A DNA stretch of 64,000 nt, taken from sequence record MK373786.1. The stretch is one strand, 5' to 3'. The notes under the pieces were generated by a model. That model was not told the origin of the DNA. It made no database searches and worked only from the letters and a program-made list of their open reading frames with translations. Numbering within the stretch: position 1 is the stretch's first letter; each line of letters begins with the position of its first letter. Made by a program: the position numbers and the translations under genes. This DNA is from Escherichia phage vB_EcoM_R5505. Below, in pieces: positions 31,822 through 56,156 of this stretch.

Positions 31822-31846
31822 TTTATCCCTCCAAGTAACTGTGAAT

Positions 31847-31876: not shown

Positions 31877-31880
31877 AACT

Positions 31881-32849
<969 letters not shown>

Positions 32850-32868
<19 letters not shown>

Positions 32869-34104: not shown

Positions 34105-34657
34105 ATTTTTCTAATAATAAATCGCTTTCAAAATTAGGATTTTCTACGAATTTATCAAAAAGATCATCAACAATAGTTAAGATATTCTTTTTACTAAGAA
34201 TACGTTTATTTTCATGCTTTGTTTCAGAATCAACTATAAGAGTAAAGAAATATTTCTTGCCCTGAAATTTTACAGTAGTATCAATATAGAATAAATTTGA
34301 CTTTTGTAAATTACGTTTAAACCATGCATCACTTAAACTATAAACACCAAGATAATCATAATCGTCGTTTAAATAACATACTGTCCATTCAGGAGAAATG
34401 AAATCAGTAAATTCAACATCAAAATCACATGTTAATGAATGAATTGATTCAATACTGTTAATAAGTATTCCAGGACGTATTAAAGACTTTTTACCTTTAT
34501 AAAATCCAGAAAGACTTTCATCAGTTTCATATGAAGAACCCCAATAATAATTACGTCCTTCTGCCATACGTTTAAGAGCATTTAATAATTGGTCTGGAAC
34601 ATCAACCTGTCTTTGGAACTCTTCAAACATTGAATTGAAATCACTTTGCATTTTCAT
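34052..34657 (-). CDS. Hypothetical protein, 201 aa
   Basis: Track ORF. Confidence 0.5.
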   Translation of the reverse strand: MKMQSDFNSMFEEFQRQVDVPDQLLNALKRMAEGRNYYWGSSYETDESLSGFYKGKKSLIRPGILINSIESIHSLTCDFDVEFTDFISPEWTVCYLNDDYDYLGVYSLSDAWFKRNLQKSNLFYIDTTVKFQGKKYFFTLIVDSETKHENKRILSKKNILTIVDDLFDKFVENPNFESDLLLEKFVKECREYVKAITIPSK

Positions 34658-34698
34658 TCCTACTTACTCCAAGTAATAGGGGCCGAAGCCCCTTATCA

Positions 34699-35292
34699 TT
34701 ATTTCAGAGAATTAATGTATTCCTGAACATCGGCAGAGGTAGTTTCAACCCCAGAAATATTACCATTAAAGGTTTCAACTCGAGCAAGAGTATCTTCAAT
34801 ATCAACCTTAGTCAGTGCTGCAATTTCAACTACATCATCGGCAGTACTAATTCCGAGGGCATTCGCGGCGCGAGTTTCACGGATATATTCCAATTTAACT
34901 GCAAGTTCTTGGCGAGCATCATCTAACTCAACTACTTTCTTGGCGATTTCAATTCGCATTTCAGCATAACCATCAGCTTTAGTAGTCAACTGCTCAGCTG
35001 TTCGACGATATAGTAAACCAAGTTTAGCATGCATTGTTACATCTTGACCTTCCGAAAGAAGCTTGCGAATTTCACGCTCTTTTGATTCGGCCTGCTTATT
35101 CTTTTCGACAATAAGTTCACGAATACGCTTTTCTTCATTAATAGATTTAACAGAAGCAGTTTTTAGATCTTTAATCTTATCAAGTAGTTTTGCTGCTGCA
35201 GCAGTATACTGTTCTTCAACAGATAGATTTTTAGCCATAGCAGAACCAAGTTTAGTGCGAATAAACTCAACAATTTTCTTCAGTGTGTTCAT
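34699..35292 (-). CDS. Coiled-coil protein with PspA/IM30-like architecture, 197 aa
   Basis: N-terminal amphipathic helix then long charged helical segments; resemblance to PspA/Vipp1 family by pattern only. Confidence 0.45.
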
Positions 35293-35348
35293 AGTATTTC
35301 CTTAGGTTGGTATAATTAGATAATATCACGTTTTAATAGATTGTAAAC

Positions 35349-35684
35349 TTATTCTTCGTCTAGCTCGTCGATAAAGACGTTGATGGCCTCGATAACGGCA
35401 TCATTGATAGCTAATAAAATAAAATCATCGTCAGTACCTTTAGAAGATTCTAAAGCATTGATATATGCTTGGTTGGCGAGTTCCCAAGCCTTTTTAAAAT
35501 AAGGAGCTTCATCATCAGGACAAATATCCCGCACGCCTTCAAAGATACGTTTGGCATAATCTAACACCCATTGTACAGGCATGTTTTGAGAACGTTCGTT
35601 AAACTCTTTAAAGTCCTTAGATTCAAAAAGCTCTTCAGGATAATTATTTCTATTACAAAAAGCTTTACTAAAGTTACGTTTCAT
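35349..35684 (-). CDS. Hypothetical acidic protein, 111 aa
   Basis: Track ORF. Confidence 0.45.
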   Translation of the reverse strand: MKRNFSKAFCNRNNYPEELFESKDFKEFNERSQNMPVQWVLDYAKRIFEGVRDICPDDEAPYFKKAWELANQAYINALESSKGTDDDFILLAINDAVIEAINVFIDELDEE

Positions 35685-35740
35685 AATGTTTTCCTCATTT
35701 GTATAGGCTCATAATATCTCAATCATGAGCCTATGTAAAC

Positions 35741-36016
35741 TTATTTCATATTATTGAAATATTCTTCTGCGATTTCGTCGTTATCATGGTAAACTTTAGA
35801 AGACAGTTTAACATAACTTTCAGCAGTGAACATGTTAATCACAACCTTTACAGTATACCACTGACCGTCTTCATTGCCCATTACCGCATAAGTTTCAAAC
35901 ATCGGATGATCAGGACCGATAACTTTAATATCATTCACTGTACGACCGAAATCTTCTGAAACACATTTCATAAAGAAGTTGAACAGTTCGCCGTAATTAT
36001 CCATTTCGTTCTCCAA
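35741..36016 (-). CDS. Hypothetical protein, 91 aa
   Basis: Track ORF downstream of early promoter 36048-36077. Confidence 0.45.
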   Translation of the reverse strand: MENEMDNYGELFNFFMKCVSEDFGRTVNDIKVIGPDHPMFETYAVMGNEDGQWYTVKVVINMFTAESYVKLSSKVYHDNDEIAEEYFNNMK

Positions 36017-36047
36017 GTTGTTTTCTGTATCAGTAGTTGATAGTTGT

Positions 36048-36077
36048 ATAGTACCATGGAAGAAAAGGGATGTAAAC
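36048..36077 (-). promoter_or_regulatory. Early-type promoter within conserved promoter cassette
   Basis: Minus strand GTTTAC...TGGTACTATACAACTATCAACTAC. Confidence 0.55.
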
Positions 36078-36210
36078 AGTTTTGTGAAAAAATTTTTAAA
36101 AAGTTTTAGGGAATTCTAGGGTCAGGAGGGGCAATTAAAAGATAGGATAATATATTATAAAGGGTAGAAACTAAATGATGCCTAGAGAGGCCCAGAAAGG
36201 CCTAGATACC

Positions 36211-36235
36211 AAAAAGTCCCAACCTTTCGGTTGGG
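36211..36235 (-). terminator. Intrinsic terminator
   Basis: Stem-loop CCCAACC-GAAA-GGTTGGG followed by TTTTT on the minus strand. Confidence 0.65.
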
Positions 36236-36245
36236 GCTAAGAATG

Positions 36246-36719
36246 TTATTTGATTTGTTTAGCAGACCAAATGCGGTCTTTAATAATTTTTTGGATGTCT
36301 TCAACATACTCAAGAGAGTGAGCATGTGGGTTATCTTTGAAACTATAAGCACGAGCTAACTTTTGACCTTCAGTTTTGATTACTAAAAGCTCTTTAAGGA
36401 TAGCTTCATATTTGGAGATAATTCCTTTAACAATATTTTTTTCTTGTGTAGCTTTAGGATCTGCTTTAGGAGCAGGTTTACCTGAAGCCTTTGCAAAAGC
36501 AGCGCCAGTAGCAACTAAACTTTTCCAGGCCATACTAACTGCATTCCCTGTAAATCCTTCGGCTTTCATATCACGAGCAAATTGGAATCGTGATTCATCG
36601 GAAGCATCTTTATAGGAATATTTACCCGCGGCAATGGCTGCTTTTGCGACAGCTTGAATTTCGGTGCTAGATGCTTCATTTAACACCGCTTCATTTAAAA
36701 ATTGAGCATATGATTTCAT
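36246..36719 (-). CDS. Internal-protein-like head protein with leader, 157 aa
   Basis: N-terminus MKSYAQFLNEA resembles the capsid-targeting leader; minus-strand TATAAATA at 36755-36762 upstream; hairpin terminator downstream. Confidence 0.55.
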   Translation of the reverse strand: MKSYAQFLNEAVLNEASSTEIQAVAKAAIAAGKYSYKDASDESRFQFARDMKAEGFTGNAVSMAWKSLVATGAAFAKASGKPAPKADPKATQEKNIVKGIISKYEAILKELLVIKTEGQKLARAYSFKDNPHAHSLEYVEDIQKIIKDRIWSAKQIK

Positions 36720-36754
36720 CTTATTTCCTGTTTTAATTCGTGGTTTTAATATAC

Positions 36755-36762
36755 TTATTTAT
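36755..36762 (-). promoter_or_regulatory. Late promoter core TATAAATA
   Basis: Exact TATAAATA on minus strand upstream of the head-protein-like gene 36246..36719. Confidence 0.5.
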
Positions 36763-36765
36763 ACC

Positions 36766-36792
36766 AAAAAGCCCCAACCTTTCGGTCGGGGC
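36766..36792 (-). terminator. Intrinsic terminator at the distal end of the tRNA/stable-RNA transcription unit
   Basis: Stem-loop GCCCCGACC-GAAA-GGTTGGGGC followed by TTTTT on the minus strand. Confidence 0.6.
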
Positions 36793-36799
36793 TAAGCCT

Positions 36800-37100
36800 T
36801 GCGGCAACCTTGTCGGGGTTCCACCTGCTAAGGCAAGTGTTTGTACGAAACGCCGGGATTCGAACCCGGTTATTAAGCAGTTGACGCTACTCAATATTTT
36901 TAAAAGGCCATATCTCGACCATATCCGAACGTTCCGTCAAAAACGCTACTCGGCTTACGGCAAAGATATTTCCTCGAATCGATAATTCGGTGCGCCGTTT
37001 CTGCTGTGATATAAGAGGGCATTAACAAAACATAAAGATTTATTAATGCCAGTCCTTAAACAGGGAACATCAGTCCGACGACTTACCGGTAGCGACCCGG
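36800..37100 (-). ncRNA. Structured non-coding region downstream of the tRNA cluster (candidate small stable RNAs, tRNA-like T-arm)
   Basis: No plausible ORF; tRNA-like T-arm CCGGG-ATTCGAA-CCCGG at 36853-36869 with complementary acceptor-like ends (36846-36852 and 36930-36936); 8-bp inverted repeat GGCATTAA/TTAATGCC around 37019-37050; T4 encodes two small stable RNAs near its tRNA genes. Confidence 0.35.
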
Positions 37101-37104
37101 TTTC

Positions 37105-37455
37105 TTAATATTCTTTTAAAGCATCAATTTGTTCACGGCGTAAACGCCATAAATCAATTGCTTCATAAGCAGATTCAGCATTTCGAATTAGCCGACATTT
37201 ATGTAAAGACTTATGATTTTGATATTGTGTAGATAACGGAATTTTATCTAAAAGGTCTTTACGTTCAAAATATTCGTAACCATCTAAACCAAATGAACGA
37301 TTTTTGAGAAATTGCCAATGACCATATTCGTTTTCGACATAAACATAATCTGCATGCTGATAAAGCAAATTAATTACACGTTCAGAAATAACAGTATCAT
37401 TATGATTAAAATAGAATGTTAAATCATGAACTACTAAATAAACATTACATTTCAT
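37105..37455 (-). CDS. Hypothetical protein, 116 aa
   Basis: Track ORF between tRNA-Arg and the structured RNA region. Confidence 0.45.
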   Translation of the reverse strand: MKCNVYLVVHDLTFYFNHNDTVISERVINLLYQHADYVYVENEYGHWQFLKNRSFGLDGYEYFERKDLLDKIPLSTQYQNHKSLHKCRLIRNAESAYEAIDLWRLRREQIDALKEY

Positions 37456-37473
37456 ATTTTCCTCACTTATAAT

Positions 37474-37549
37474 TGGTCGAGGCAGTAGGGATCGAACCTA
37501 CGACCTAGGACTTAGAAGGTCCTTGCTCTTCCTTCTGAGCTATGCCCCG
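37474..37549 (-). tRNA. tRNA-Arg (anticodon TCT), CCA encoded
   Basis: Hand-folded cloverleaf: acceptor CGGGGCA/TGCCTCG, T-arm GTAGG-TTCGATC-CCTAC, anticodon loop CTTCTAA. Confidence 0.85.
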
Positions 37550-37553
37550 TAAT

Positions 37554-37629
37554 TGGGGTGACCGATGGGAGTCGAACCCATGACTACGAGAATCACAATC
37601 TCGAGTTCTACCAACTGAACTACGGCCAC
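37554..37629 (-). tRNA. tRNA-His (anticodon GTG), CCA encoded
   Basis: Hand-folded: acceptor GTGGCCG/CGGTCAC, D-arm GTTC-AGTTGGTA-GAAC, anticodon loop TTGTGAT, T-arm ATGGG-TTCGACT-CCCAT, discriminator C. Confidence 0.75.
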
Positions 37630-37745
37630 ATTAATACCTACTCCAACAATCAAGATGTCTTCACACGAAATTAAGAGAAGAGTGATCAGTTCAACCCCTA
37701 TAATCGCGTCAAGTAGATATTAATGTGACAGTTGTCACAAATTTG

Positions 37746-37817
37746 GCGGACGTGATAGGATTCGAACCTATAACCAATCGCTTAACAGGCGATCGCTCTG
37801 CCATTGAGCTACACATC
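37746..37817 (-). tRNA. tRNA-Asn (anticodon GTT), CCA not encoded
   Basis: Hand-folded: acceptor GGATGTG/CACGTCC, anticodon stem-loop ATCGC-CTGTTAA-GCGAT, T-arm ATAGG-TTCGAAT-CCTAT. Confidence 0.75.
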
Positions 37818-37821
37818 CAAA

Positions 37822-37908
37822 TTGGTGGGGAGTGGTGGAGTCGAACCACCCGAGTCGCAATGACAATGAATTTACAGTCCACACCGCTACCTCTACGGGA
37901 TAACTCCC
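37822..37908 (-). tRNA. tRNA-Tyr (anticodon GTA), long variable arm, CCA encoded
   Basis: Hand-folded: acceptor GGGGAGT/ACTCCCC, anticodon loop CTGTAAA, long variable arm, T-arm GGTGG-TTCGACT-CCACC. Confidence 0.7.
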
Positions 37909-37917
37909 CAAATTAAT

Positions 37918-37992
37918 TTGGTGGCCCTGGGTGGAATTGAACCACCATCTGGCGATTATGAGTCGCTTGCTTGAACCTTCCAGCTACAGGGC
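37918..37992 (-). tRNA. tRNA with anticodon CAT (Ile2/Met type), CCA encoded
   Basis: Hand-folded: acceptor GGCCCTG/CAGGGCC, anticodon loop CTCATAA, T-arm GGTGG-TTCAATT-CCACC; in T4 the CAU tRNA reads AUA as Ile. Confidence 0.8.
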
Positions 37993-37993
37993 C

Positions 37994-38070
37994 TTGGTGC
38001 TGATTGACGGAATCGAACCGCCGACCTTCTCATTACAAGTGAGTTGCTCTACCTACTGAGCTAAATCAGC
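37994..38070 (-). tRNA. tRNA-Thr (anticodon TGT), CCA encoded
   Basis: Hand-folded: acceptor GCTGATT/AATCAGC, D-arm GCTC-AGTAGGTA-GAGC, anticodon loop CTTGTAA. Confidence 0.85.
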
Positions 38071-38075
38071 AAAAC

Positions 38076-38165
38076 TGGCGGAGGCGATAGGATTTGAACC
38101 TATGAGTCGCCGGAGCGACTGCCGGTTTTCAAGACCGGTGCATTAAACCACTCTGCCACGCCTCC
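38076..38165 (-). tRNA. tRNA-Ser (anticodon TGA), long variable arm, CCA encoded
   Basis: Hand-folded: acceptor GGAGGCG/CGCCTCC, anticodon stem-loop ACCGG-TCTTGAA-AACCGG, long variable arm, T-arm ATAGG-TTCAAAT-CCTAT. Confidence 0.9.
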
Positions 38166-38167
38166 AG

Positions 38168-38241
38168 TCTCCATACAAGGATTTGAACCTTGGACCTCCT
38201 GATCCCAAATCAGGCGCTCTACCAAACTGAGCTACACGGAG
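38168..38241 (-). tRNA. tRNA-Pro (anticodon TGG), CCA not encoded
   Basis: Hand-folded: acceptor CTCCGTG/TATGGAG, D-arm GCTC-AGTTTGGTA-GAGC, anticodon loop TTTGGGA. Confidence 0.85.
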
Positions 38242-38251
38242 TAAATTAAAT

Positions 38252-38325
<74 letters not shown>

Positions 38326-38330
38326 AAATT

Positions 38331-38417
38331 TGGTGCGAGAAGTGGGACTCGAACCCACAAGGAAATCATTCCGCAGCATTTTAAGTGCTGTGCCTTTACC
38401 AATTTGACCATTCTCGC
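38331..38417 (-). tRNA. tRNA-Leu (anticodon TAA), long variable arm, CCA encoded
   Basis: Hand-folded: acceptor GCGAGAA/TTCTCGC, anticodon stem-loop CAGCA-CTTAAAA-TGCTG, T-arm GTGGG-TTCGAGT-CCCAC. Confidence 0.85.
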
Positions 38418-38418
38418 G

Positions 38419-38491
38419 CTGGGAATAAAGGACTCGAACCTTTGCATCTAGCAGTCAAAGTGCTATGCCTTACCAACTTGGCTAATTCCCA
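38419..38491 (-). tRNA. tRNA-Gln (anticodon TTG), CCA not encoded
   Basis: Hand-folded: acceptor TGGGAAT/ATTCCCA, D-arm GCC-AAGTTGGTA-AGGC, anticodon stem-loop TAGCA-CTTTGAC-TGCTA. Confidence 0.85.
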
Positions 38492-38577
38492 ATTATTAAC
38501 AAAGGCTCTCAAACAAGAACCCTTGATGATAGAGGGTATTAATCAGTGCGGTATGAGTTAATAATAACAAATAATTC

Positions 38578-39093
38578 TTAAAGCAAATTAAACATTTTAA
38601 CGGTCGGCAAAACAATTTCTTCTTCTATATAAGAGTATTTAACACTCTCAACTACACGCAAAAAATCATAATCATAATACTCAGAAGCATTACCTAAAAT
38701 ATTAATAAGTCCTTCAAGCACTTTATTACCATTCACAAAGAATAAGTCAAATACGCGTTCTTCGTCTTCTTCGGATTTATTACCAAGGTCAACTTCTATA
38801 TCAAAGACCTTTTTAATGAATTCTGGATAAAGTTGTTCTGAGAACAGTCCTTCAACCAAGTATTCATAAATAAAAAGCGATTGCTCGCTGAACAAGCCAT
38901 TACCACAATAACGTTCAGCTTTAGTACTAGAATGTCTACTTTTAAACTTCTTTAAAAGATATTGAAATTGTAAGATTTCATGCTCTTCTACGCCAAACAG
39001 TGTTTTAGTTTTATAGTTGTCACCATCATTTTCCCAGGTAGTGACATCAATTACGTAACCCTGTGGAATTGTAGTACCTAAACAAATATTCAT
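38578..39093 (-). CDS. Hypothetical protein, 171 aa
   Basis: Track ORF upstream of the tRNA cluster. Confidence 0.5.
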   Translation of the reverse strand: MNICLGTTIPQGYVIDVTTWENDGDNYKTKTLFGVEEHEILQFQYLLKKFKSRHSSTKAERYCGNGLFSEQSLFIYEYLVEGLFSEQLYPEFIKKVFDIEVDLGNKSEEDEERVFDLFFVNGNKVLEGLINILGNASEYYDYDFLRVVESVKYSYIEEEIVLPTVKMFNLL

Positions 39094-39383
39094 TTGCTCA
39101 CCATATTAATGTAAGTATATTCAATACATTCAAGACCCAAAGGATTCTTGAAAATATCATATTCAAGAGGACCTTTTTCCGTTTCAATAAAGAAATCAAA
39201 ATTTACTGTATTAAATTTACGGTCTTCCTTCACTAATTTAACCTGAGAAGATGAACGGTCAATGTAAACCTTTTCAACTTCAAAACATGTTAAAATGCCA
39301 TAATCATCAATCAAGGCTTTAGCTGCTTCTTGATCATATTTATATCCATTTTCAATGGATGATACTTTAGCATAAAGAATCAT
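39090..39383 (-). CDS. Hypothetical protein, 97 aa
   Basis: Track ORF. Confidence 0.45.
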   Translation of the reverse strand: MILYAKVSSIENGYKYDQEAAKALIDDYGILTCFEVEKVYIDRSSSQVKLVKEDRKFNTVNFDFFIETEKGPLEYDIFKNPLGLECIEYTYINMVSK

Positions 39384-39385
39384 TA

Positions 39386-39796
39386 TCAGCCTCTATCAAC
39401 GATAGCATGAGTATGGGCATTTACGATTTGCCACCAGTCGAAACGATTGGAACCATAATCTGGTTTATTTTCATTTTCTTTAATGATATCACGCAGTTTA
39501 TCTTCTGTTTCAGCATACGCAATTAAATCATCATATCCGCCACAAGGATAATAATTATCACCTGCGAATAAAAGAAAATTTACCTTAGATGGATTTACGT
39601 AATAATGGTCTTTAGGATATTTAGTTCCTCTCCAATCAGTTACTTCAACATAACGGTAAGAAAATCCATTTTTACTTTCAATCCAACTCCACGCTTCAAA
39701 AGGAGTATTAAAAACTTTATCAGGTATTAAATTACCTTCAAAATGAGAAGGATTTGCATAATCCCCGGCATAAACATAATATTCGTTAATACTCAT
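39386..39796 (-). CDS. Hypothetical protein, 136 aa
   Basis: Track ORF. Confidence 0.5.
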   Translation of the reverse strand: MSINEYYVYAGDYANPSHFEGNLIPDKVFNTPFEAWSWIESKNGFSYRYVEVTDWRGTKYPKDHYYVNPSKVNFLLFAGDNYYPCGGYDDLIAYAETEDKLRDIIKENENKPDYGSNRFDWWQIVNAHTHAIVDRG

Positions 39797-39982
39797 TTAT
39801 TCACCTTTAGAAATTTTATCCATAACAATAGCAATTAAACCAATTAAAAATGCTACTACAAGTGAAAACACATTTTCTGCTGTAGTCAATAATCCACATA
39901 TAAATCCAACAAACATTGAAAAACTAAAAGCGGAAGCAGAAATTGCAATAGCAACATTTCGAATTAATTCACAACGTTTCAT
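39797..39982 (-). CDS. Small membrane protein, 61 aa
   Basis: Two hydrophobic segments; downstream of early promoter 40011-40040. Confidence 0.4.
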   Translation of the reverse strand: MKRCELIRNVAIAISASAFSFSMFVGFICGLLTTAENVFSLVVAFLIGLIAIVMDKISKGE

Positions 39983-40010
39983 TTTATTCTCCTCAGTAGT
40001 AGATAGGGTA

Positions 40011-40040
40011 ATAGTATCACTACCCTATCTAAAAGTAAAC
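40011..40040 (-). promoter_or_regulatory. Early-type promoter (variant cassette GTGATACTATTACC)
   Basis: Minus strand GTTTAC-N18-TACTAT with flanking inverted repeat. Confidence 0.5.
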
Positions 40041-40274
40041 TTATTTTTTACGAAAAATTGATTTATATTTATCAGCCCATTTCTCGATGACTTTTTCTGG
40101 TCCATAGATAACAAAATAATCACCAAACTCTTCACCACCGAGTTGACCGAAATTATCTAATGCATCACGAAGAACTCCATGAGGCATTTCGCCCATTTTA
40201 TCTTTCTTACCAATGTAAATAAACTCAACTTTTACATCAGCAGCTTCAGCAATAAATTCTTGATACGTTTTCAT
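40041..40274 (-). CDS. Internal-protein-like small protein with capsid-targeting leader, about 77 aa
   Basis: Track ORF 40041..40292 begins at a GTG; real start placed at ATG 40272-40274 giving MKTYQEFIAEAADVK with GGAG upstream. Confidence 0.6.
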   Translation of the reverse strand: MKTYQEFIAEAADVKVEFIYIGKKDKMGEMPHGVLRDALDNFGQLGGEEFGDYFVIYGPEKVIEKWADKYKSIFRKK

Positions 40275-40310
40275 TTTATTCTCCAATTTCACATTTGTTT
40301 TGATAGGGTA

Positions 40311-40340
40311 ATAGTATCACTACTAAAACCCCGTGTAAAC
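40311..40340 (-). promoter_or_regulatory. Early-type promoter (variant cassette) upstream of the 77-aa internal-protein-like gene
   Basis: Minus strand GTTTACACGGGGTTTTAGTAGTGATACTAT. Confidence 0.5.
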
Positions 40341-40359
40341 AACTTTGTGAAATTGTTTA

Positions 40360-40647
40360 TTACAAAAGATTTTTAGCAATAATCTTGAGATGTGCTGCAG
40401 AAATGTGTTTAGCTTTAAACAACGCAGTTTCTTCGGCAGGAGAGATAACGATTGTAGCACCATCCTTTTTAGCAGACCACCCATCACCTAGGTAAACAGT
40501 ACCTTTGATTTCTTCGCCATCAACCAGACTAATCATTGGTTTACCTTCTCGTCCTTTATTTGCTTTAATAACTTCAGAAGTAAGAGTAGCTTCGGTAATG
40601 GTAGAAACCGGGGTAGTTGTAGAAGTAAATTCTTTAAATGTTTTCAT
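40360..40647 (-). CDS. ipI: Internal protein I precursor (19-aa leader plus 76-aa mature), 95 aa
   Basis: 95 aa; leader MKTFKEFTSTTTPVSTITE ending in a prohead-protease-type site; position adjacent to 57B as in T4. Confidence 0.7.
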   Translation of the reverse strand: MKTFKEFTSTTTPVSTITEATLTSEVIKANKGREGKPMISLVDGEEIKGTVYLGDGWSAKKDGATIVISPAEETALFKAKHISAAHLKIIAKNLL

Positions 40648-40677
40648 TTTATTTTCCTAATTAATTTTGATGAGATA

Positions 40678-40708
40678 ATAGTATCACTACCTCATCAGTA
40701 TGTAAACA
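40678..40708 (-). promoter_or_regulatory. Early-type promoter (variant cassette) upstream of ipI
   Basis: Minus strand GTTTAC-N19-TACTAT. Confidence 0.45.
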
Positions 40709-40719
40709 ACTTTGTGAAA

Positions 40720-41416
<697 letters not shown>

Positions 41417-41417
<1 letters not shown>

Positions 41418-42142
41418 TATAGTACCTTTAGTGTATTTTTAATTTTAGAAAAAAGTTCTTCAAGAGAACCATCGTTTGTAATTACTAAATCGCCATCACG
41501 AATTGGCAATCCAGCTTCTGTAATATGTGTATCATTGGATTTTTGACCAGGACGAACTACATGAATTACTGTAGCACCCATCGCCCTAGCCGCATCCATT
41601 TCATGATCTTGACGGGTATCAGGAACGATATAATAATCATAACCTGAGTTAAATTTATCAAGATAATCTAAAGCAAATAATTTTACCCAGTACATGCGGT
41701 CGAAGTTATTAACAATCAAATCCGTACCTAGGGCTTGCATCAGACGACGGACTGACCATTGATCTTCAATATTATTTATAACGTCAGTAATTTTGTTAAA
41801 TGCTACGAAATTAACTGATTCTTTTCCTTCGTCATCAAAAACAAACACACCTTTAATTGGGCTTTTACCATTAAGATAGCAAAATGCTTGTTCCATAATC
41901 GTGATTACTTCTAATTTAGTCAGATTTAAATTAGTCTCACGATCATAGTCAATTCCTTCAAACTCTTTACGAGTTAAGCAAGGATAGTCAGTGTTTGCTG
42001 CAAATACTCCCCATGCATAAGCCAATGCATCCTTAATAGGACCAGCAAGTTGGTATTTAACTGCAGAATAATTGCTCATGATAAAATCAGCAGTAGTATC
42101 TTTTCCACTACGCTTTACACCGCTTAAAAAGATTAGTTTCAT
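41417..42142 (-). CDS. 1: Deoxynucleoside monophosphate kinase gp1, 241 aa
   Basis: Start placed at MKLIFLSGVKRSGKDTTADF (P-loop) within track ORF 41417..42181. Confidence 0.9.
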
Positions 42143-44152: not shown

Positions 44153-44743
44153 ATGCTCTTTACATTTTTTGATCCGATTGAATATGCGGCCAAAACGGTG
44201 AATAAAAACGCGCCGACTATTCCTATGACAGATATTTTTAGAAACTATAAAGACTATTTTAAACGCGCTCTTGCGGGATACCGCTTACGTACTTATTATA
44301 TTAAAGGTTCACCACGCCCGGAAGAATTAGCAAATACTATATATGGAAATCCACAGTTGTATTGGGTTTTATTGATGTGTAATGATAATTATGATCCGTA
44401 TTATGGATGGATTACTTCACAAGAAGCTGCTTATCAAGCATCTATACAAAAATACAAAAATGTGGGTGGAGACCAGATAGTATATCATGTGAATGAGAAC
44501 GGTGAAAAATTTTATAATTTAATATCATACGATGATAATCCATATGTTTGGTATGACAAAGGTGATAAAGCTAGAAAATATCCTCAATATGAAGGAGCAC
44601 TTGCTGCGGTCGATACGTATGAAGCTGCTGTTCTTGAAAATGAAAAACTTCGTCAAATAAAAATAATAGCAAAATCCGACATTAATTCATTTATGAACGA
44701 CCTTATACGTATAATGGAGAAATCTTATGGAAATGATAAGTAA
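44153..44743 (+). CDS. 53: Baseplate wedge protein gp53, 196 aa
   Basis: 196-aa ORF preceded by plus-strand TATAAATA at 44116-44123. Confidence 0.9.
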   Translation: MLFTFFDPIEYAAKTVNKNAPTIPMTDIFRNYKDYFKRALAGYRLRTYYIKGSPRPEELANTIYGNPQLYWVLLMCNDNYDPYYGWITSQEAAYQASIQKYKNVGGDQIVYHVNENGEKFYNLISYDDNPYVWYDKGDKARKYPQYEGALAAVDTYEAAVLENEKLRQIKIIAKSDINSFMNDLIRIMEKSYGNDK

Positions 44744-46454
44744 TAACCTTAATTGGTTTGTTGGTGTTGTTGAAGATAGAATGGACCCATTAAAATTAGG
44801 TCGTGTTCGTGTTCGTGTGGTTGGTTTGCATCCACCCCAAAGAGCACAAGGTGATGTAATGGGTATTCCAACTGAAAAATTACCATGGATGTCAGTTATT
44901 CAACCTATAACTTCTGCAGCGATGTCAGGAATTGGAGGTTCTGTTACAGGGCCAGTAGAAGGAACTAGAGTTTATGGTCATTTTTTAGACAAATGGAAAA
45001 CTAACGGAATTGTCCTTGGCACATATGGTGGAATAGTTCGCGAAAAACCGAATAGACTTGAAGGATTTTCTGACCCAACTGGGCAGTATCCTAGACGTTT
45101 AGGAAATGATACGAACGTATTAAACCAAGGCGGAGAAGTAGGATATGATTCGTCTTCTAATATTATCCAAGATAGTAATCTAGACACTGCGATAAATCCC
45201 GATGATAGACCACTATCAGAGATTCCAACCGATGATAATCCAAATATGTCAATGGCTGAAATGCTTCGCCGTGATGAAGGATTAAGATTAAAAGTTTATT
45301 GGGATACCGAAGGATATCCGACAATTGGTATTGGTCATCTTATCATGAAGCAGCCAGTTCGTGATATGGCTCAAATTAATAAAGTTTTATCAAAACAAGT
45401 TGGTCGTGAAATTACAGGAAATCCAGGTTCTATTACAATGGAAGAGGCGACGACTTTATTTGAGCGTGATTTGGCTGATATGCAACGTGACATTAAATCG
45501 CATTCTAAAGTAGGACCAGTCTGGCAAGCTGTTAACCGTTCTCGTCAAATGGCATTAGAAAATATGGCATTTCAGATGGGTGTTGGTGGTGTAGCTAAAT
45601 TTAACACAATGTTAACTGCTATGTTAGCCGGAGATTGGGAAAAAGCATATAAAGCTGGTCGTGATTCATTGTGGTATCAACAAACAAAAGGCCGTGCATC
45701 CCGTGTTACCATGATTATTCTTACGGGAAATTTGGAATCATATGGTGTTGAAGTGAAAACCCCAGCTAGGTCTCTATCAGCAATGGCTGCTACTGTAGCT
45801 AAATCTTCTGACCCTGCTGATCCTCCTATTCCAAATGACTCGAGAATTTTATTCAAAGAACCAGTTTCTTCATATAAAGGTGAGTATCCTTATGTGCATA
45901 CAATGGAAACTGAAAGCGGACATATTCAGGAATTTGATGATACCCCTGGGCAAGAACGATACAGATTAGTTCATCCAACTGGAACTTATGAAGAAGTATC
46001 ACCGTCAGGAAGAAGAACAAGAAAAACTGTTGATAATTTGTATGATATAACCAACGCTGATGGTAATTTTTTGGTAGCCGGTGATAAAAAGACTAACGTC
46101 GGTGGTTCAGAAATTTATTATAACATGGATAATCGTCTTCACCAAATAGATGGAAGCAATACAATATTTGTACGTGGCGATGAAACTAAGACGGTTGAAG
46201 GTAATGGAACTATCCTAGTCAAAGGTAATGTTACTATTGTAGTTGAAGGCAATGCTGACATTACAGTTAAAGGAGATGCTACCACTTTAGTTGAAGGTAA
46301 TCAAACTAATACAGTAAATGGAAATCTTTCTTGGAAAGTTGCTGGGACAGTTGATTGGGACGTTGGCGGTGATTGGACAGAAAAAATGGCATCTATGAGT
46401 TCTATTTCATCTGGTCAATACACAATTGATGGATCGAGGATTGACATTGGCTAA
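44727..46454 (+). CDS. 5: Baseplate hub / cell-puncturing protein with lysozyme domain gp5, 575 aa
   Basis: 575 aa; N-terminal OB domain, central lysozyme domain (MAEMLRRDEGLRLKVYWDTEGYPTIGIGHL) paralogous to gene e, C-terminal VxGxxxxx beta-helix repeats. Confidence 0.97.
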   Translation: MEMISNNLNWFVGVVEDRMDPLKLGRVRVRVVGLHPPQRAQGDVMGIPTEKLPWMSVIQPITSAAMSGIGGSVTGPVEGTRVYGHFLDKWKTNGIVLGTYGGIVREKPNRLEGFSDPTGQYPRRLGNDTNVLNQGGEVGYDSSSNIIQDSNLDTAINPDDRPLSEIPTDDNPNMSMAEMLRRDEGLRLKVYWDTEGYPTIGIGHLIMKQPVRDMAQINKVLSKQVGREITGNPGSITMEEATTLFERDLADMQRDIKSHSKVGPVWQAVNRSRQMALENMAFQMGVGGVAKFNTMLTAMLAGDWEKAYKAGRDSLWYQQTKGRASRVTMIILTGNLESYGVEVKTPARSLSAMAATVAKSSDPADPPIPNDSRILFKEPVSSYKGEYPYVHTMETESGHIQEFDDTPGQERYRLVHPTGTYEEVSPSGRRTRKTVDNLYDITNADGNFLVAGDKKTNVGGSEIYYNMDNRLHQIDGSNTIFVRGDETKTVEGNGTILVKGNVTIVVEGNADITVKGDATTLVEGNQTNTVNGNLSWKVAGTVDWDVGGDWTEKMASMSSISSGQYTIDGSRIDIG

Positions 46455-47285: not shown

Positions 47286-49268
47286 ATGGCAAATACCCCT
47301 GTAAATTATCAATTAACAAGAACAGCAAATGCTATTCCCGAGATATTCGTCGGGGGTACGTTTGCTGAAATAAAACAAAACCTCATTGAATGGCTTAATG
47401 GTCAAAATGAATTTTTGGATTATGATTTTGAAGGCTCAAGATTAAACGTTCTGTGTGACCTTTTAGCTTATAATACATTATACATTCAACAGTTTGGTAA
47501 TGCTGCTGTGTATGAAAGCTTTATGCGTACTGCTAACTTACGAAGTTCAGTTGTTCAAGCTGCACAAGATAACGGATATTTACCTACTTCAAAATCCGCT
47601 GCGCAGACCGAAATTATGTTAACATGCACCGACGCATTGAATAGGAATTACATTACTATTCCTCGCGGAACTCGCTTTTTAGCATATGCAAAAGATACTT
47701 CTGTTAATCCATACAACTTCGTTTCTACCGAAGACGTTATTGCTATTCGTGATAAAAATAACCAATATTTTCCGCGTTTAAAATTGGCCCAGGGACGTAT
47801 AGTAAGAACTGAAATCATTTATGATAAATTAACACCTATTATCATTTATGATAAAAATATTGATAGAAACCAGGTTAAATTATATGTTGATGGAGCGGAA
47901 TGGATTAACTGGACGAGAAAGTCAATGGTTCATGCTGGTTCAACATCAACGATTTATTATATGCGTGAAACTATTGATGGAAACACTGAATTCTATTTTG
48001 GTGAAGGTGAAATTTCTGTTAATGCTTCTGAAGGAGCTTTGACCGCTAATTATATCGGAGGTCTTAAACCTACTCAGAACTCTACGATTGTTATTGAGTA
48101 CATTAGTACTAATGGTGCTGACGCGAACGGAGCAGTCGGATTTTCATACGCAGATACATTAACAAATATAACTGTCATCAATATTAATGAAAATCCAAAC
48201 GATGACCCAGATTTTGTTGGGGCAGATGGCGGCGGTGATCCAGAAGATATTGAGCGTATTCGCGAATTGGGTACTATTAAACGCGAAACCCAACAACGAT
48301 GCGTAACTGCGACTGACTATGATACATTCGTTTCAGAGAGATTTGGTTCTATTATTCAAGCAGTTCAAACTTTCACTGATTCTACTAAACCTGGGTATGC
48401 ATTTATTGCTGCTAAACCTAAATCAGGTCTGTATCTAACTACTGTACAACGTGAAGATATTAAAAATTATCTCAAAGACTATAATTTAGCTCCTATTACG
48501 CCATCAATTATTTCTCCTAATTATCTTTTTATTAAGACTAATTTAAAAGTCACATATGCTTTAAATAAACTGCAAGAATCCGAGCAGTGGCTTGAAGGTC
48601 AAATAATTGATAAAATTGATCGCTATTATACCGAAGATGTAGAAATTTTTAACTCGTCTTTTGCCAAGTCTAAGATGTTGACATATGTAGATGATGCAGA
48701 TCATTCTGTCATTGGTTCATCAGCGACTATTCAAATGGTTCGTGAAGTACAAAACTTCTATAAAACGCCTGAAGCGGGTATTAAATACAATAATCAAATA
48801 AAAGATCGTTCTATGGAATCTAATACGTTTTCATTTAATTCTGGACGAAAGGTTGTAAATCCTGATACTGGTTTAGAAGAAGATGTATTATATGACGTTC
48901 GTATAGTATCAACAGACCGAGATTCTAAAGGAATTGGTAAAGTTATTATTGGTCCATTTGCTTCTGGCGATGTTACAGAAAATGAAAACATTCAGCCGTA
49001 TACAGGCAACGATTTTAACAAATTAGCAAATTCTGATGGACGCGACAAATATTATGTTATCGGTGAAATAAATTATCCAGCTGACATGATTTATTGGAAT
49101 ATCGCTAAAATTAATTTAACATCTGAAAAATTTGAAGTTCAGACTATTGAATTATATTCTGACCCAACCGATGATGTTATCTTTACTCGCGATGGTTCAC
49201 TGATTGTATTTGAAAATGACTTACGTCCACAATACTTAACTATCGATTTGGAGCCTATATCACAATGA
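47286..49268 (+). CDS. 6: Baseplate wedge protein gp6, 660 aa
   Basis: 660-aa ORF in the conserved 53-5-6-7-8 order. Confidence 0.95.
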   Translation: MANTPVNYQLTRTANAIPEIFVGGTFAEIKQNLIEWLNGQNEFLDYDFEGSRLNVLCDLLAYNTLYIQQFGNAAVYESFMRTANLRSSVVQAAQDNGYLPTSKSAAQTEIMLTCTDALNRNYITIPRGTRFLAYAKDTSVNPYNFVSTEDVIAIRDKNNQYFPRLKLAQGRIVRTEIIYDKLTPIIIYDKNIDRNQVKLYVDGAEWINWTRKSMVHAGSTSTIYYMRETIDGNTEFYFGEGEISVNASEGALTANYIGGLKPTQNSTIVIEYISTNGADANGAVGFSYADTLTNITVININENPNDDPDFVGADGGGDPEDIERIRELGTIKRETQQRCVTATDYDTFVSERFGSIIQAVQTFTDSTKPGYAFIAAKPKSGLYLTTVQREDIKNYLKDYNLAPITPSIISPNYLFIKTNLKVTYALNKLQESEQWLEGQIIDKIDRYYTEDVEIFNSSFAKSKMLTYVDDADHSVIGSSATIQMVREVQNFYKTPEAGIKYNNQIKDRSMESNTFSFNSGRKVVNPDTGLEEDVLYDVRIVSTDRDSKGIGKVIIGPFASGDVTENENIQPYTGNDFNKLANSDGRDKYYVIGEINYPADMIYWNIAKINLTSEKFEVQTIELYSDPTDDVIFTRDGSLIVFENDLRPQYLTIDLEPISQ

Positions 49269-52200
49269 CAGTAAAAGCACCTTCAGTCACTAGTCTCAGA
49301 ATTTCCAAGTTATCCGCAAATCAGGTGCAAGTACGCTGGGATGACGTTGGTGCTAATTTCTACTATTTTGTAGAAATCGCTGAGACAAAAACAGACTCGG
49401 GGGAAAAACTCCCGAGTAATCAATATCGTTGGATTAATTTAGGATATACTGCAAATAACAGCTTCTTTTTTGATGATGCTGATCCATTAACAACATACAT
49501 TATTAGAGTAGCCACAGCTGCGCAAGATTTTGAGCAGTCTGATTGGATTTATACCGAAGAGTTTGAAACTTTTGCTACAAATGCTTATACATTTCAAAAC
49601 ATGATTGAAATGCAATTAGCCAATAAATTCATTCAGGAAAAATTTACTCTTAATAATTCTGATTATGTTAATTTTAATAATGACACTATAATGGCTGCAT
49701 TGATGAATGAATCGTTTCAATTCAGCCCATCATATGTTGATGTTTCATCAATAAGTAATTTTATTATTGGTGAAAATGAGTATCATGAAATACAAGGTTC
49801 TATTCAGCAAGTATGTAAGGATATTAACCGCGTTTATTTGATGGAATCAGAAGGGATTCTATATCTTTTTGAGCGTTATCAACCTATAGTTAAAGTATCT
49901 AATGATAAAGGACAAACCTGGAAAGCTGTGAAGCTCTTCAATGACCGTGTAGGATATCCTTTATCTAAGACAGTATATTACCAATCTGCGAACACAACAT
50001 ACGTTCTAGGATACGACAAGATTTTCTACGGCCGTAAATCAACTGATGTTAGATGGTCAGCTGATGATGTCAGATTTAGTTCGCAAGATATAACATTTGC
50101 TAAACTTGGTGACCAATTACATCTAGGATTTGATGTAGAAATTTTTGCCACTTACGCGACTTTACCAGCGAATGTATACCGCATTGCAGAAGCTATTACT
50201 TGTACAGATGATTACATTTACGTTGTTGCCAGAGACAAAGTTAGATACATAAAAACGAGTAATGCACCTATAGATTCTGATCCATTATCTCCAACATATT
50301 CGGAAAGACTTTTTGAACCCGATACAATGACTATAACTGGAAATCCTAAAGCAGTATGCTATAAAATGGATTCTATCGGTGATAAAGTTTTTGCGCTTAT
50401 TATTGGTGAAGTTGAAACATTAAATGCTAATCCTAGAACATCAAAAATAATTGATTCCGCTGATAAAGGAATATATGTTTTAAATCATGACGAAAAGACA
50501 TGGAAAAGAGTTTTCGGTAATACCGAAGAAGAAAGAAGACGTATTCAACCCGGATATGCGAATATGTCAACTGATGGTAAATTAGTTTCTCTGTCTTCGA
50601 GTAATTTTAAATTTTTAAGTGATAATGTTGTTAATGACCCTGAAACTGTGGTGAAATATCAGTTAATCGGTGCTGTTAAATATGAATTTCCTCGTGAATG
50701 GTTAACTGATAAGCATTATCATATGATGGCATTTATAGCGGATGAAACATCTGATTGGGAGACTTTTACTCCTCAACCAATGAAATACTACGCAGAACCA
50801 TTCTTTAACTGGTCTAAAAAATCTAACACACGCTGTTGGATAAACAACTCTGATAGAGCTGTAGTAGTAGTTTATGCTGATTTAAAATACACTAAAGTTA
50901 TAGAAAATATTCCGGAAACATCACCAGATAGATTAGTTCATGAATACTGGGATGATGGTGATTGCACTATAGTAATGCCAAATGTCAAATTCACTGGATT
51001 TAAAAAATACGCATCAGGAATGCTTTTCTACAAAGCCTCCGGTGAAATAATTTCTTACTATGATTTTAACTATCGTGTGAGAGATACAGTAGAAATTATT
51101 TGGAAGCCAACTGAAGTATTTTTAAAAGCATTTTTACAAAACCAAGAGCATGAGACTCCTTGGTCACCAGAAGAAGAGCGTGGATTAGCTGACCCTGATT
51201 TAAGACCATTAATTGGCACAATGATGCCTGATTCTTATTTGTTACAGGATTCGAATTTTGAAGCATTTTGCGAAGCATATATTCAATATCTTTCTGATGG
51301 ATATGGAACTCAGTATAACAATTTACGAAATTTAATTCGTAACCAATATCCACGAGAAGAGCATGCATGGGAATATTTGTGGTCAGAGATATATAAAAGA
51401 AACATTTATTTAAATGCTGACAAACGCGATGCTGTTGCGAGATTCTTTGAATCACGTAGCTATGATTTTTATTCTACTAAAGGAATTGAAGCATCATACA
51501 AGTTTCTTTTTAAAGTTCTTTATAATGAAGAAGTTGAAATTGAAATTGAATCTGGGGCTGGTACTGAATATGACATAATCGTTCAATCTGATTCTTTGAC
51601 TGAAGATTTAGTAGGACAAACGATTTATACGGCAACAGGAAGATGTAATGTTACTTATATAGAAAGAAGCTATTCTAATGGTAAATTGCAATGGACAGTA
51701 ACTATTCATAATCTTTTGGGAAGATTAATTGCTGGTCAAGAAGTTAAAGCAGAAAGACTCCCTAGTTTTGAAGGCGAAATTATTCGTGGGGTTAAAGGAA
51801 AGGATTTGCTTCAAAATAATATAGACTATATTAATAGAAGTAGATCATACTATGTAATGAAAATTAAATCCAATTTACCTTCTTCCCGCTGGAAATCTGA
51901 TGTTATTCGTTTTGTTCATCCAGTAGGATTTGGATTTATAGCAATTACACTTTTAACAATGTTTATTAATGTTGGTTTAACTCTTAAACATACAGAGACT
52001 ATAATTAATAAATACAAAAACTATAAATGGGATTCTGGATTGCCTACTGAATATGCTGATAGAGTAGCTAAATTAACTCCAGCTGGTGAAATTGAGCATG
52101 ATTCAGTAACAGGCGAAGCAATTTATGAGCCTGGCCCAATGGCTGGTGTAGAATATCCTCTTCCTGATGACTATAATGCTGAAAATAATAATTCAATATT

Positions 52201-52366
52201 TCAAGGTCAATTGCCGTCTGAACGACGTAAATTAATGAGTCCTTTATTTGATGCATCTGGAACAACATTTGCGCAATTTAGAGATTTAGTTAATAAACGT
52301 CTAAAAGACAATATAGGAAATCCAAGAGACCCTGAAAATCCAACACAGGTTAAAATAGATGAATGA
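49265..52366 (+). CDS. 7: Baseplate wedge protein gp7, 1033 aa
   Basis: 1033-aa ORF overlapping the gene 6 stop. Confidence 0.95.
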   Translation: MTVKAPSVTSLRISKLSANQVQVRWDDVGANFYYFVEIAETKTDSGEKLPSNQYRWINLGYTANNSFFFDDADPLTTYIIRVATAAQDFEQSDWIYTEEFETFATNAYTFQNMIEMQLANKFIQEKFTLNNSDYVNFNNDTIMAALMNESFQFSPSYVDVSSISNFIIGENEYHEIQGSIQQVCKDINRVYLMESEGILYLFERYQPIVKVSNDKGQTWKAVKLFNDRVGYPLSKTVYYQSANTTYVLGYDKIFYGRKSTDVRWSADDVRFSSQDITFAKLGDQLHLGFDVEIFATYATLPANVYRIAEAITCTDDYIYVVARDKVRYIKTSNAPIDSDPLSPTYSERLFEPDTMTITGNPKAVCYKMDSIGDKVFALIIGEVETLNANPRTSKIIDSADKGIYVLNHDEKTWKRVFGNTEEERRRIQPGYANMSTDGKLVSLSSSNFKFLSDNVVNDPETVVKYQLIGAVKYEFPREWLTDKHYHMMAFIADETSDWETFTPQPMKYYAEPFFNWSKKSNTRCWINNSDRAVVVVYADLKYTKVIENIPETSPDRLVHEYWDDGDCTIVMPNVKFTGFKKYASGMLFYKASGEIISYYDFNYRVRDTVEIIWKPTEVFLKAFLQNQEHETPWSPEEERGLADPDLRPLIGTMMPDSYLLQDSNFEAFCEAYIQYLSDGYGTQYNNLRNLIRNQYPREEHAWEYLWSEIYKRNIYLNADKRDAVARFFESRSYDFYSTKGIEASYKFLFKVLYNEEVEIEIESGAGTEYDIIVQSDSLTEDLVGQTIYTATGRCNVTYIERSYSNGKLQWTVTIHNLLGRLIAGQEVKAERLPSFEGEIIRGVKGKDLLQNNIDYINRSRSYYVMKIKSNLPSSRWKSDVIRFVHPVGFGFIAITLLTMFINVGLTLKHTETIINKYKNYKWDSGLPTEYADRVAKLTPAGEIEHDSVTGEAIYEPGPMAGVEYPLPDDYNAENNNSIFQGQLPSERRKLMSPLFDASGTTFAQFRDLVNKRLKDNIGNPRDPENPTQVKIDE

Positions 52367-53426: not shown

Positions 53427-54293
53427 ATGTTCATTCAAGAACCAAAGAAATTGATTGATACCGGCGAAATTGGTAACGCTTCTACTGGTGATATCTTATT
53501 CGACGGTGGTAATAAAATTAATAGTGATTTTAACGCAATTTATAATGCGTTTGGCGATCAGCGTAAAATGGCAGTAGCAAATGGCACTGGAGCAGATGGT
53601 CAAATTATCCATGCTACTGGATATTATCAAAAACACTCTATTACAGAGTACGCAACTCCAGTGAAAGTTGGCACTAGACATGATATTGATACCTCTACTG
53701 TAGGTGTTAAAGTTATCATTGAAAGAGGCGAACTCGGCGACTGTGTTGAATTTATTAACTCAAATGGATCAATATCAGTTACTAATCCTTTAACAATTCA
53801 AGCTATTGATTCAATTAAAGGTGTTTCGGGTAATTTAGTAGTAACTAGCCCATATAGTAAAGTTACTTTACGCTGTATTTCATCTGATAATTCTACTTCG
53901 GTTTGGAATTATTCTATTGAAAGTATGTTTGGACAAAAGGAATCACCAGCTGAAGGTACATGGAATATTTCTACATCTGGATCAGTTGACATTCCATTAT
54001 TTCATCGCACTGAATACAATATGGCTAAATTGCTAGTTACGTGCCAATCGGTAGATGGAAGAAAAATTAAAACAGCAGAAATAAATATTCTTGTGGATAC
54101 TGTTAATTCAGAGGTAATTTCTTCTGAATATGCTGTCATGCGAGTTGGGAATGAAACCGAAGAAGACGAAATCGCTAATATTGCATTTAGTATTAAAGAA
54201 AACTATGTAACGGCGACTATAAGTTCTTCAACTGTCGGTATGAGAGCAGCAGTTAAAGTTATCGCTACGCAGAAAATCGGGGTGGCTCAATAA
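53427..54293 (+). CDS. 9: Baseplate wedge / long-tail-fibre socket protein gp9, 288 aa
   Basis: 288-aa ORF preceded by TATAAATA at 53395-53402. Confidence 0.95.
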   Translation: MFIQEPKKLIDTGEIGNASTGDILFDGGNKINSDFNAIYNAFGDQRKMAVANGTGADGQIIHATGYYQKHSITEYATPVKVGTRHDIDTSTVGVKVIIERGELGDCVEFINSNGSISVTNPLTIQAIDSIKGVSGNLVVTSPYSKVTLRCISSDNSTSVWNYSIESMFGQKESPAEGTWNISTSGSVDIPLFHRTEYNMAKLLVTCQSVDGRKIKTAEINILVDTVNSEVISSEYAVMRVGNETEEDEIANIAFSIKENYVTATISSSTVGMRAAVKVIATQKIGVAQ

Positions 54294-56156
54294 TGAAACA
54301 AAATATTAATATCGGTAATGTTGTAGATGATGGTACCGGTGACTACCTGCGTAAAGGTGGTATAAAAATAAATGAAAACTTTGATGAGCTTTATTATGAA
54401 CTCGGTGATGGTGATGTTCCATATTCAGCCGGTGCCTGGAAAACTTATAATGCTTCATCAGGACAAACATTAACAGCAGAATGGGGAAAATCATACGCTA
54501 TTAATACATCTTCTGGAAGAGTGACTATAAATCTTCCAAAGGGTACAGTTAATGATTACAACAAGGTAATTAGAGCTAGAGACGTATTTGCTACGTGGAA
54601 CGTCAACCCAGTTACACTAGTAGCTGCTTCCGGCGATACGATTAAAGGGTCTGCAGTACCAGTTGAAATTAATGTTCAATTCAGCGATTTAGAACTAGTG
54701 TATTGTGCCCCAGGACGTTGGGAATATGTCAAAAATAAACGATTTAGAACTAGTGTATTGTGCCCCAGGACGTTGGGAATATGTCAAAAATAAACAAATT
54801 GACAAAATTACCAGTTCAGACATTAGTAATGTAGCTCGTAAAGAATTTTTAGTCGAAGTCCAAGGGCAAACAGACTTTTTAGATGTTTTCCGTGGAACTA
54901 GTTATAATGTAAATAACATCAGAGTAAAACATCGTGGTAACGAATTGTATTACGGCGATGTGTTTAGCGAAAACAGCGATTTTGGCTCTCCGGGCGAAAA
55001 TGAAGGAGAACTAGTTCCTCTTGATGGATTTAATATTCGATTAAGACAGCCTTGTAATATTGGTGATACTGTTCAAATTGAAACATTTATGGATGGTGTA
55101 TCGCAGTGGAGAAGTTCATATACAAGACGTCAAATTAGATTGTTAGATTCAAAATTAACGTCAAAAACTTCTCTAGAAGGAAGTATTTACGTTGCTGATT
55201 TATCAACAATGAAATCAATTCCATTTTCTGCTTTTGGATTAATTCCAGGAGAACCTATTAATCCTAATTCTCTTGAGGTTCGTTTTAACGGGATTTTGCA
55301 GGAATTGGCTGGAACAGTTGGAATGCCATTATTTCATTGTGTTGGTGCCGATTCAGACGATGAAGTAGAATGCTCTGTTTTAGGTGGAACTTGGGAACAA
55401 TCTCATACCGATTATTCAGTTGAAACTGATGAAAACGGCATACCGGAAATTTTACATTTCGATAGAGTATTTGAGCATGGTGACATTATCAATATCACCT
55501 GGTTTAATAATGATTTGGGTACATTATTAACAAAAGATGAGATTATTGATGAAACTGACAATCTCTATGTATCGCAAGGACCAGGAGTAGATATTTCCGG
55601 TGATGTAAATTTAACAGACTTCGATAAAATTGGTTGGCCAAATGTAGAAGCAGTTCAATCTTATCAACGCGAATTTAATGCTGTTTCAAATATCTTTGAT
55701 ACGATTTATCCTATTGGAACTATATATGAAAACGCCGTTAATCCAAACAACCCTGTTACATATATGGGATTCGGCTCATGGAAATTATTTGGGCAAGGAA
55801 AAGTTTTAGTTGGATGGAATGAAGATATTTCGGACCCTAACTTTGCTCTAAATAACAACGATTTAGATTCGGGTGGAAATCCTTCACATACTGCAGGTGG
55901 AACAGGTGGTTCTACTTCTGTTACATTGGAAAATGCTAATCTTCCTGCAACTGAAACAGATGAAGAAGTTCTAATAGTTGATGAAAATGGATCAGTCATT
56001 GTTGGTGGGTGTCAATACGATCCAGATGAATCCGGTCCAATCTACACTAAATACCGTGAAGCTAAAGCATCTACTAACTCTACTCACACTCCGCCAACAT
56101 CAATAACTAACATTCAACCATATATTACAGTTTATCGTTGGATAAGGATTGCATAA
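54293..56156 (+). pseudogene. 10: Baseplate wedge gene 10, reading frame interrupted by a 55-bp tandem duplication (fragments 54293..54793 and 54705..56156)
   Basis: Upstream ORF ends ...FSDLELVYCAPGRWEYVKNK then reads the second repeat copy out of frame (RFRTSVLCPRTLGICQK, stop at 54791-54793); downstream ORF resumes DLELVYCAPGRWEYVKNKQIDKITSSD... in frame through 56156; removing one 55-bp copy gives a single 602-codon ORF. Confidence 0.85.
54686..54795. repeat. Perfect direct tandem duplication, 2 x 55 bp
   Basis: GATTTAGAACTAGTGTATTGTGCCCCAGGACGTTGGGAATATGTCAAAAATAAAC at 54686-54740 repeated identically at 54741-54795. Confidence 0.95.

Follow-up and report, generated by a model that had tools for sequence, protein, structure and literature searches.

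The main finding of this study is that the perfect 55-bp tandem duplication splitting gene 10 in the deposited genome of Escherichia phage vB_EcoM_R5505 (MK373786.1; hereafter R5505) is, with very high probability, an artefact of genome finishing, namely an untrimmed SPAdes contig-end overlap of k = 55, and not a feature of the phage. The window on which we worked is a 64,000-nucleotide stretch of this record, and positions are counted from its first letter unless stated otherwise. Direct comparison of the letters shows two adjacent and identical 55-mers, GATTTAGAACTAGTGTATTGTGCCCCAGGACGTTGGGAATATGTCAAAAATAAAC, at 54686-54740 and 54741-54795, and Tandem Repeats Finder returns 54685-54795 with a period of 55, 2.0 copies, 100% match, 0 indels and a score of 222, both of which bear out the back-to-back repeat described in the initial annotation. 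The placement of the unit carries a 1-nt phase ambiguity, the same C standing before copy 1 and at the end of both copies, and the periodic stretch measures 111 nt, i.e., just 1 nt past 2 x 55. This is the sole perfect tandem duplication of period 15-400 within the 64-kb window, and a chance origin is excluded because the probability of 55 matching bases is ~4^-55 per position. The novel junction between the copies reads ...GTCAAAAATAAAC up to the join and GATTTAGAACTAG... after it. The elements of the repeat are as follows.

54686..54740, + strand: copy 1 of the 55-bp unit, covering gp10 codons 132-149 and the first base of codon 150
54741..54795, + strand: copy 2 of the 55-bp unit, the redundant copy, taken to derive from the opposite end of the contig written by SPAdes (k = 55 overlap)
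54740/54741 (+/- 1-nt phase ambiguity), + strand: join of the old contig ends, as interpreted here

The interrupted gene is T4 gene 10, encoding gp10, the baseplate wedge subunit/tail pin. It lies between gene 9 and gene 11 in a gene order (gp53, gp5, gp6, gp7, gp8, gp9, gp10, gp11, gp12, wac) that is the T4 baseplate cluster, it gives 602 aa when reconstructed, and its two fragments together hold the full gp10 domain set: the Pfam domain T4_gp9_10_N in the N-terminal fragment (E = 6.8e-63) and T4_gp9_10_C, Gp10_D3 and Gp10_C in the C-terminal one, with E-values for the gp10 hits overall from 1e-35 to 7e-63. The split sits close to where the N part of the gp9/10-like module meets its C part. 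Because 55 mod 3 = 1, gene 10 shows an apparent frameshift, and the deposited and reconstructed forms of the gene compare as follows.

54293..54793, + strand: N-terminal fragment of gene 10 in the deposited record, 166 aa in which gp10 residues 1-149 are followed by 17 out-of-frame residues
54791..54793, + strand: premature TAA in the gene 10 frame, read as artefactual and placed by the codon layout (+1 shift)
54705..56156, + strand: gene 10 C-terminal fragment ORF, with a first start GTG at 54705 and an ATG at 54726; true gp10 resumes at D132 (54741)
54293..56156, + strand: true gene 10 after deletion of either 55-bp copy, 1809 nt, 602 codons

The codon layout is that described in the initial annotation, in which the gene 10 frame ended 17 codons into the second copy and a downstream ORF resumed the same peptide in another frame. 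From the ATG at 54293 the frame runs to ...VKNK, continues through the 17 out-of-frame codons RFRTSVLCPRTLGICQK and stops at the TAA at 54791-54793, while the +1 frame picks gp10 up again at DLELVYCAPGRWEYVKNKQIDK... and stays open to 56156. The 166-aa truncated product matches QBQ79769.1 exactly in a protein cluster look-up, an entry named "putative baseplate wedge subunit and tail pin" from Escherichia phage vB_EcoM_R5505. Deletion of one copy restores an uninterrupted 1809-nt gene that differs from the gp10 gene of T4T by 24 nt and its product by 1 aa, and this excess of silent differences points to purifying selection both 5' and 3' of the repeat. The 55 bp are thus the sole lesion of gene 10, both halves of which have been kept under purifying selection. 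The reconstructed 602-aa gp10 has exactly the sequence of gp10 from phage vB_Eco_EH2 (CAL1328439.1), falls in a 90%-identity cluster of 203 members and differs from T4 gp10 (AF158101) by 4 residues. In the real phage the 55-mer almost certainly occurs once, and gp10 is intact at 602 aa. The earlier claim that gene 10 is split and that the phage cannot make full-length gp10 consequently has to be divided: the record is split, but the evidence for an artefact makes it almost certain that the phage is not.

Related sequences carry one copy throughout. The best hit to the window in the phage collection has 98.7% identity over 24 kb. A gene 10 query matches 552 records of the phage collection, and those listed span 1809 bp versus 1864 bp in the window; a 211-bp query around the repeat matches 290 records, and the matches of those listed amount to 156 bp, corresponding to one copy. 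With a 54-bp query centred on the junction, coverage of at least 80% is reached in none of the 105 matching phage records, and the junction 28-mer was found neither in IMG/VR contigs nor in JGI metagenome contigs. The gp9 encoded in the window has exactly the sequence of T4 gp9, and the assembly collection contains it in 482 blocks; gene 10 next to this identical gp9 encodes 602 aa in all ten places listed. No relative compared shows a split at the gp10 site. A search for the same duplication in related genomes had been proposed at the outset as a check, and its absence from the 290 matched records, IMG/VR and the JGI metagenomes speaks for an artefact and not for recoding. In an alignment of 12.9 kb with 11 relatives, only two structural differences are seen, one being the 55 bp and the other an additional in-frame GTA (3 bp) in gene 7. 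The neighbouring genes agree in length with those annotated in teqdroes, except that gp7 is one in-frame codon longer.

Several other features of the window deserve mention in their own right. The extra GTA in gene 7 (ORF 49265-52366) lies in a GTA GTA GTA run at 50857-50868 and gives a gp7 of 1033 aa versus the usual 1032, i.e., a valine insertion, which is probably a natural triplet-repeat variant; the exact 1033-aa gp7 was not on record elsewhere in Logan, ENA or the NCBI index. Near the 3' end of gene 5 (ORF 44727-46454), an imperfect 24/48-bp tandem array with 68-70% matches occupies 46194-46325, a pattern that agrees with the octapeptide repeats in the beta-helix needle of gp5. Over 26753-38600, a more divergent (96%) early-gene and tRNA region, the window differs from teqdroes by several indels of 1-2 bp, such as those at 29582, 32412, 37026, 37039 and 38071, and those checked are intergenic or mutually compensating. 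No further split gene was noticed in this survey of the indels of the region.

The source publication supplies the elements of a simple explanation. Korf et al. 2019 (PMC6563267) list vB_EcoM_R5505 as a Tequatrovirus of 167,317 bp sequenced at 133x coverage (Table S4, MK373786), state that Illumina data were assembled with SPAdes 3.12.0 "(55kmer)" (Methods 2.10), and report that T4-like, circularly permuted genomes were rearranged to the order of published relatives. The same paper describes R5505 as isolated from plaques, tested for host range and typed as a myovirus by morphology. It used both Illumina and PacBio and gives no platform for each phage; the 55-bp signature itself leads us to infer that R5505 went through Illumina and SPAdes rather than PacBio. 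The sequence of events would then be the following. Since T4-like DNA is circularly permuted, the de Bruijn graph would close on itself, and the circle would be output by SPAdes in linear form, with the first 55 bases of the contig occurring again as its last 55. Rotation of this contig by the authors to the published T4-like start (rIIA) would join the old ends and leave the overlap copy in, a trimming step having apparently been skipped for R5505. The old contig ends would by chance have fallen in gene 10, which would yield a perfect 55-bp tandem repeat there.

What is seen in the records agrees with an untrimmed end overlap in each respect. The repeat length of 55 equals the stated assembly k, the copies are identical and adjacent in the rotated genome, there is one repeat per circle at an arbitrary site that recurs in the same pipeline (for R5505, as seen in the 64-kb window only), and the junction is absent from independent sequences of related phages. 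Two independent reports, on the T4-like phage 132 (PMC8483715) and on E. coli LF82 phages (PMC12509680), describe a 55-bp SPAdes end overlap on circular contigs. These cases parallel R5505 in that the perfect repeat equals the largest k (55), the genome is T4-like and circularly permuted, and the contig was reopened to match T4. The difference is that one copy was trimmed before reopening in these phages, whereas R5505 and its two siblings described below were evidently left untrimmed, and the repeat is therefore an internal tandem one and not a terminal one. In the Phage Annotation Guide (PMC8785237), no relevant passage on k-mer overlaps was found.

As a test of pipeline origin, two whole sibling genomes of the same study were scanned for perfect tandem duplications, with periods of 15-400 for OE5505 (MK373785) and 15-300 for D5505 (MK327929). 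Each whole genome contains exactly one, and in both the period is 55. In OE5505 it lies at 7414-7524 of its own record and splits a 166-aa ORF into the CDSs OE5505_00012 and OE5505_00013. The OE5505 repeat is held only by its own GenBank and RefSeq entries (MK373785.1 and NC_054926.1), the 10 relatives listed spanning 285-286 bp of the 341-bp query, and removal of one copy yields a 501-nt ORF that is annotated as "transcriptional regulator" in the listed relatives. In D5505 the repeat lies at ~150,473-150,583 of its record, which is 1074-1184 in locus coordinates, and falls within the long-tail-fibre gene 34, for which the record gives two CDSs (D5505_00252 and D5505_00253). The records of both siblings begin at rIIA, as that of T4 does, and have therefore been rotated to the T4 convention. 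The N-terminal gp10 fragment is the 163rd protein accession of R5505, the same index as gp10 in OE5505, as judged from accession numbering. Controls from other laboratories, comprising 50 kb of teqdroes and ten 12.9-kb loci (T4, T4T, and ENA and Logan assemblies), contain no such duplication. Three genomes of one pipeline thus show one repeat each, at three unrelated loci and with a length equal to the stated k (R5505 being covered by its 64-kb window), and since the same 55-bp lesion recurs at unrelated loci, independent natural events are not a reasonable source.

The sibling records show two further peculiarities. The D5505 record (MK327929.1) is 168,049 bp long versus 168,409 in Table S4 of PMC6563267. 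In both siblings the gene after gene 11, i.e., in the position of the short-tail-fibre gene 12, is labelled "long tail fiber, proximal subunit" (OE5505_00174, locus coordinates 39922-41472, and D5505_00167, locus coordinates 38731-40281), which is likely a mis-annotation.

A real and recent 55-bp duplication, generated by replication slippage or illegitimate recombination and inactivating gene 10 in a stock that was non-viable, mixed or equipped with a suppressor or helper, is very unlikely, even though T4 frameshift mutations classically include short tandem duplications and identical copies are what a very recent event would leave. The length equals the assembler k exactly, OE5505 and D5505 each have one perfect 55-bp duplication of their own in a gene other than gene 10, and the junction is absent from the other genomes and metagenomes searched. 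The 1-nt microhomology (C) at the boundaries is compatible with such an event but gives it no real support, being no more than chance would provide, and the flanking microhomology of several nucleotides that characterizes slipped-strand duplication is absent, periodicity extending 1 nt beyond the two copies. The baseplate gene 10 is essential in T4, and the plaques and normal myovirus particles given by R5505 are for that reason hard to reconcile with a null allele. The duplication frameshifts known from the T4 rIIB and e genes are similar to the R5505 repeat in being short tandem duplications whose length is not a multiple of 3; however, they are real mutations selected in non-essential or conditionally essential genes, whereas the R5505 repeat has the length of k and recurs elsewhere in siblings. 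Mutation and artefact had both been favoured in the initial annotation. Artefact has gained from the match between length and k, the siblings and the lack of a shared junction, and the same evidence has told against real mutation.

Readings that keep the duplication real and gp10 functional fare worse still. Production of full-length gp10 by recoding, through a 55-nt hop in the manner of gene 60 or a +1/-2 slip on CAA AAA UAA A (54785-54794) that would add an 18-residue insertion, is extremely improbable. T4 itself has the gene 60 translational bypass (a 50-nt hop), each codon of copy 1 has by construction an identical landing codon 55 nt downstream, and the A-run before the out-of-frame stop could allow tRNA-Lys to re-pair (-2 on AAA, +1 on AAU) and restore the gp10 frame. 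However, a gene-60-type hop requires that the take-off codon be followed directly by a stop and that a hairpin form at the take-off site. None of the codons of copy 1 from which a ribosome could take off precedes a stop, the frame staying open until 54791, after the 17 out-of-frame codons. The folding of RNA 54670-54820 is no more stable than that of shuffled sequence, its minimum free energy being -27.3 kcal/mol versus -26.3 on average for the shuffles (z = -0.28). None of the 290 matched relatives shares the arrangement, and therefore no selection has shaped it. R5505 and T4 gene 60 belong to the same phage group and share matched codons ~50 nt apart, but the take-off stop, the stem-loop and the conservation among relatives that mark gene 60-type bypass are lacking in R5505, where the matched codons follow trivially from the duplication. 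For a +1 frameshift of the prfB type, CAA AAA UAA is a weak slippery-plus-stop context, the nearest purine-rich stretch, GGGAA, lies ~10 nt upstream and not ~3, and no conservation is seen. All the evidence for an artefact applies here too, and the ribosomal hop or other recoding that had been entertained in the initial annotation finds no backing in bypass or frameshift signals or in any relative with the junction. There is likewise next to no probability that gp10 is made as two polypeptides, one of residues 1-149 with a 17-aa tail and the other of MSKIN and residues 132-602 from the ATG at 54726. The duplication does bring this ATG into the downstream frame, 15 nt ahead of the point where gp10 resumes, and no gp10 residue is missing from the two fragments taken together. 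However, the upstream sequence (CCAGGACGTTGGGAAT-ATG) has no convincing Shine-Dalgarno at a proper distance, no relative compared is split at this place near the module boundary, the 476-aa product was not on record in the protein cluster look-up, and the evidence for an artefact again applies; a functional split gene was rejected for want of a convincing ribosome-binding site before ATG 54726 and of a split relative. More generally, were the duplication present in R5505 virion DNA together with a functional gp10, by a slip, a 55-nt hop or two fragments, the match to k = 55 and the siblings would be coincidence, an eventuality to which we assign a negligible chance.

The default k values of SPAdes include both 55 and 77, and a parallel to the untrimmed overlap of R5505 is found at the second of these in BYEP02 (OR757454.1). 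This record has 77-bp tandem duplications every 1-2 kb, 96-100% identical, which split gp8 and gp12 and lie at the following locus coordinates.

85-238: 77-bp repeat of BYEP02
1458-1612: 77-bp repeat of BYEP02
2840-2993: 77-bp repeat of BYEP02
4776-4929: 77-bp repeat of BYEP02
6673-6826: 77-bp repeat of BYEP02

These look like graph contigs concatenated with their k = 77 overlaps untrimmed. The gene 10 span of BYEP02, 1886 versus 1809 bp, was considered as a related natural insertion and rejected, the record showing a series of k = 77 overlaps. BYEP02 is similar to R5505 in having perfect or near-perfect tandem repeats of length k that split essential T4-like structural genes in a "complete genome"; it differs in having many junctions and k = 77, whereas R5505 has a single junction, from the closing of one contig, and k = 55. 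The BYEP02 record is 154,724 bp long, which is short for a Tequatrovirus.

For the phage itself, the duplication in R5505 has no biological importance, gene 10 being almost certainly intact, and the value of the finding lies in curation. A spurious 55 bp is present in at least three publicly deposited "complete genome" records of a single study, MK373786, MK373785 (with NC_054926) and MK327929, and each of these insertions splits a real gene: gp10 in MK373786, the 166-aa ORF in MK373785 and gp34 in MK327929. The genomes are accordingly 55 bp too long, and false truncated proteins, such as QBQ79769.1, have entered NCBI nr and UniRef; the three records and the protein entries derived from them need correction. 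Default assembler k values are 21, 33, 55, 77, 99 and 127, and a perfect tandem duplication whose period equals one of them is a cheap and highly specific flag, which could let genome-scan pipelines filter out such repeats that might otherwise be taken for frameshifts, pseudogenes or recoding sites.
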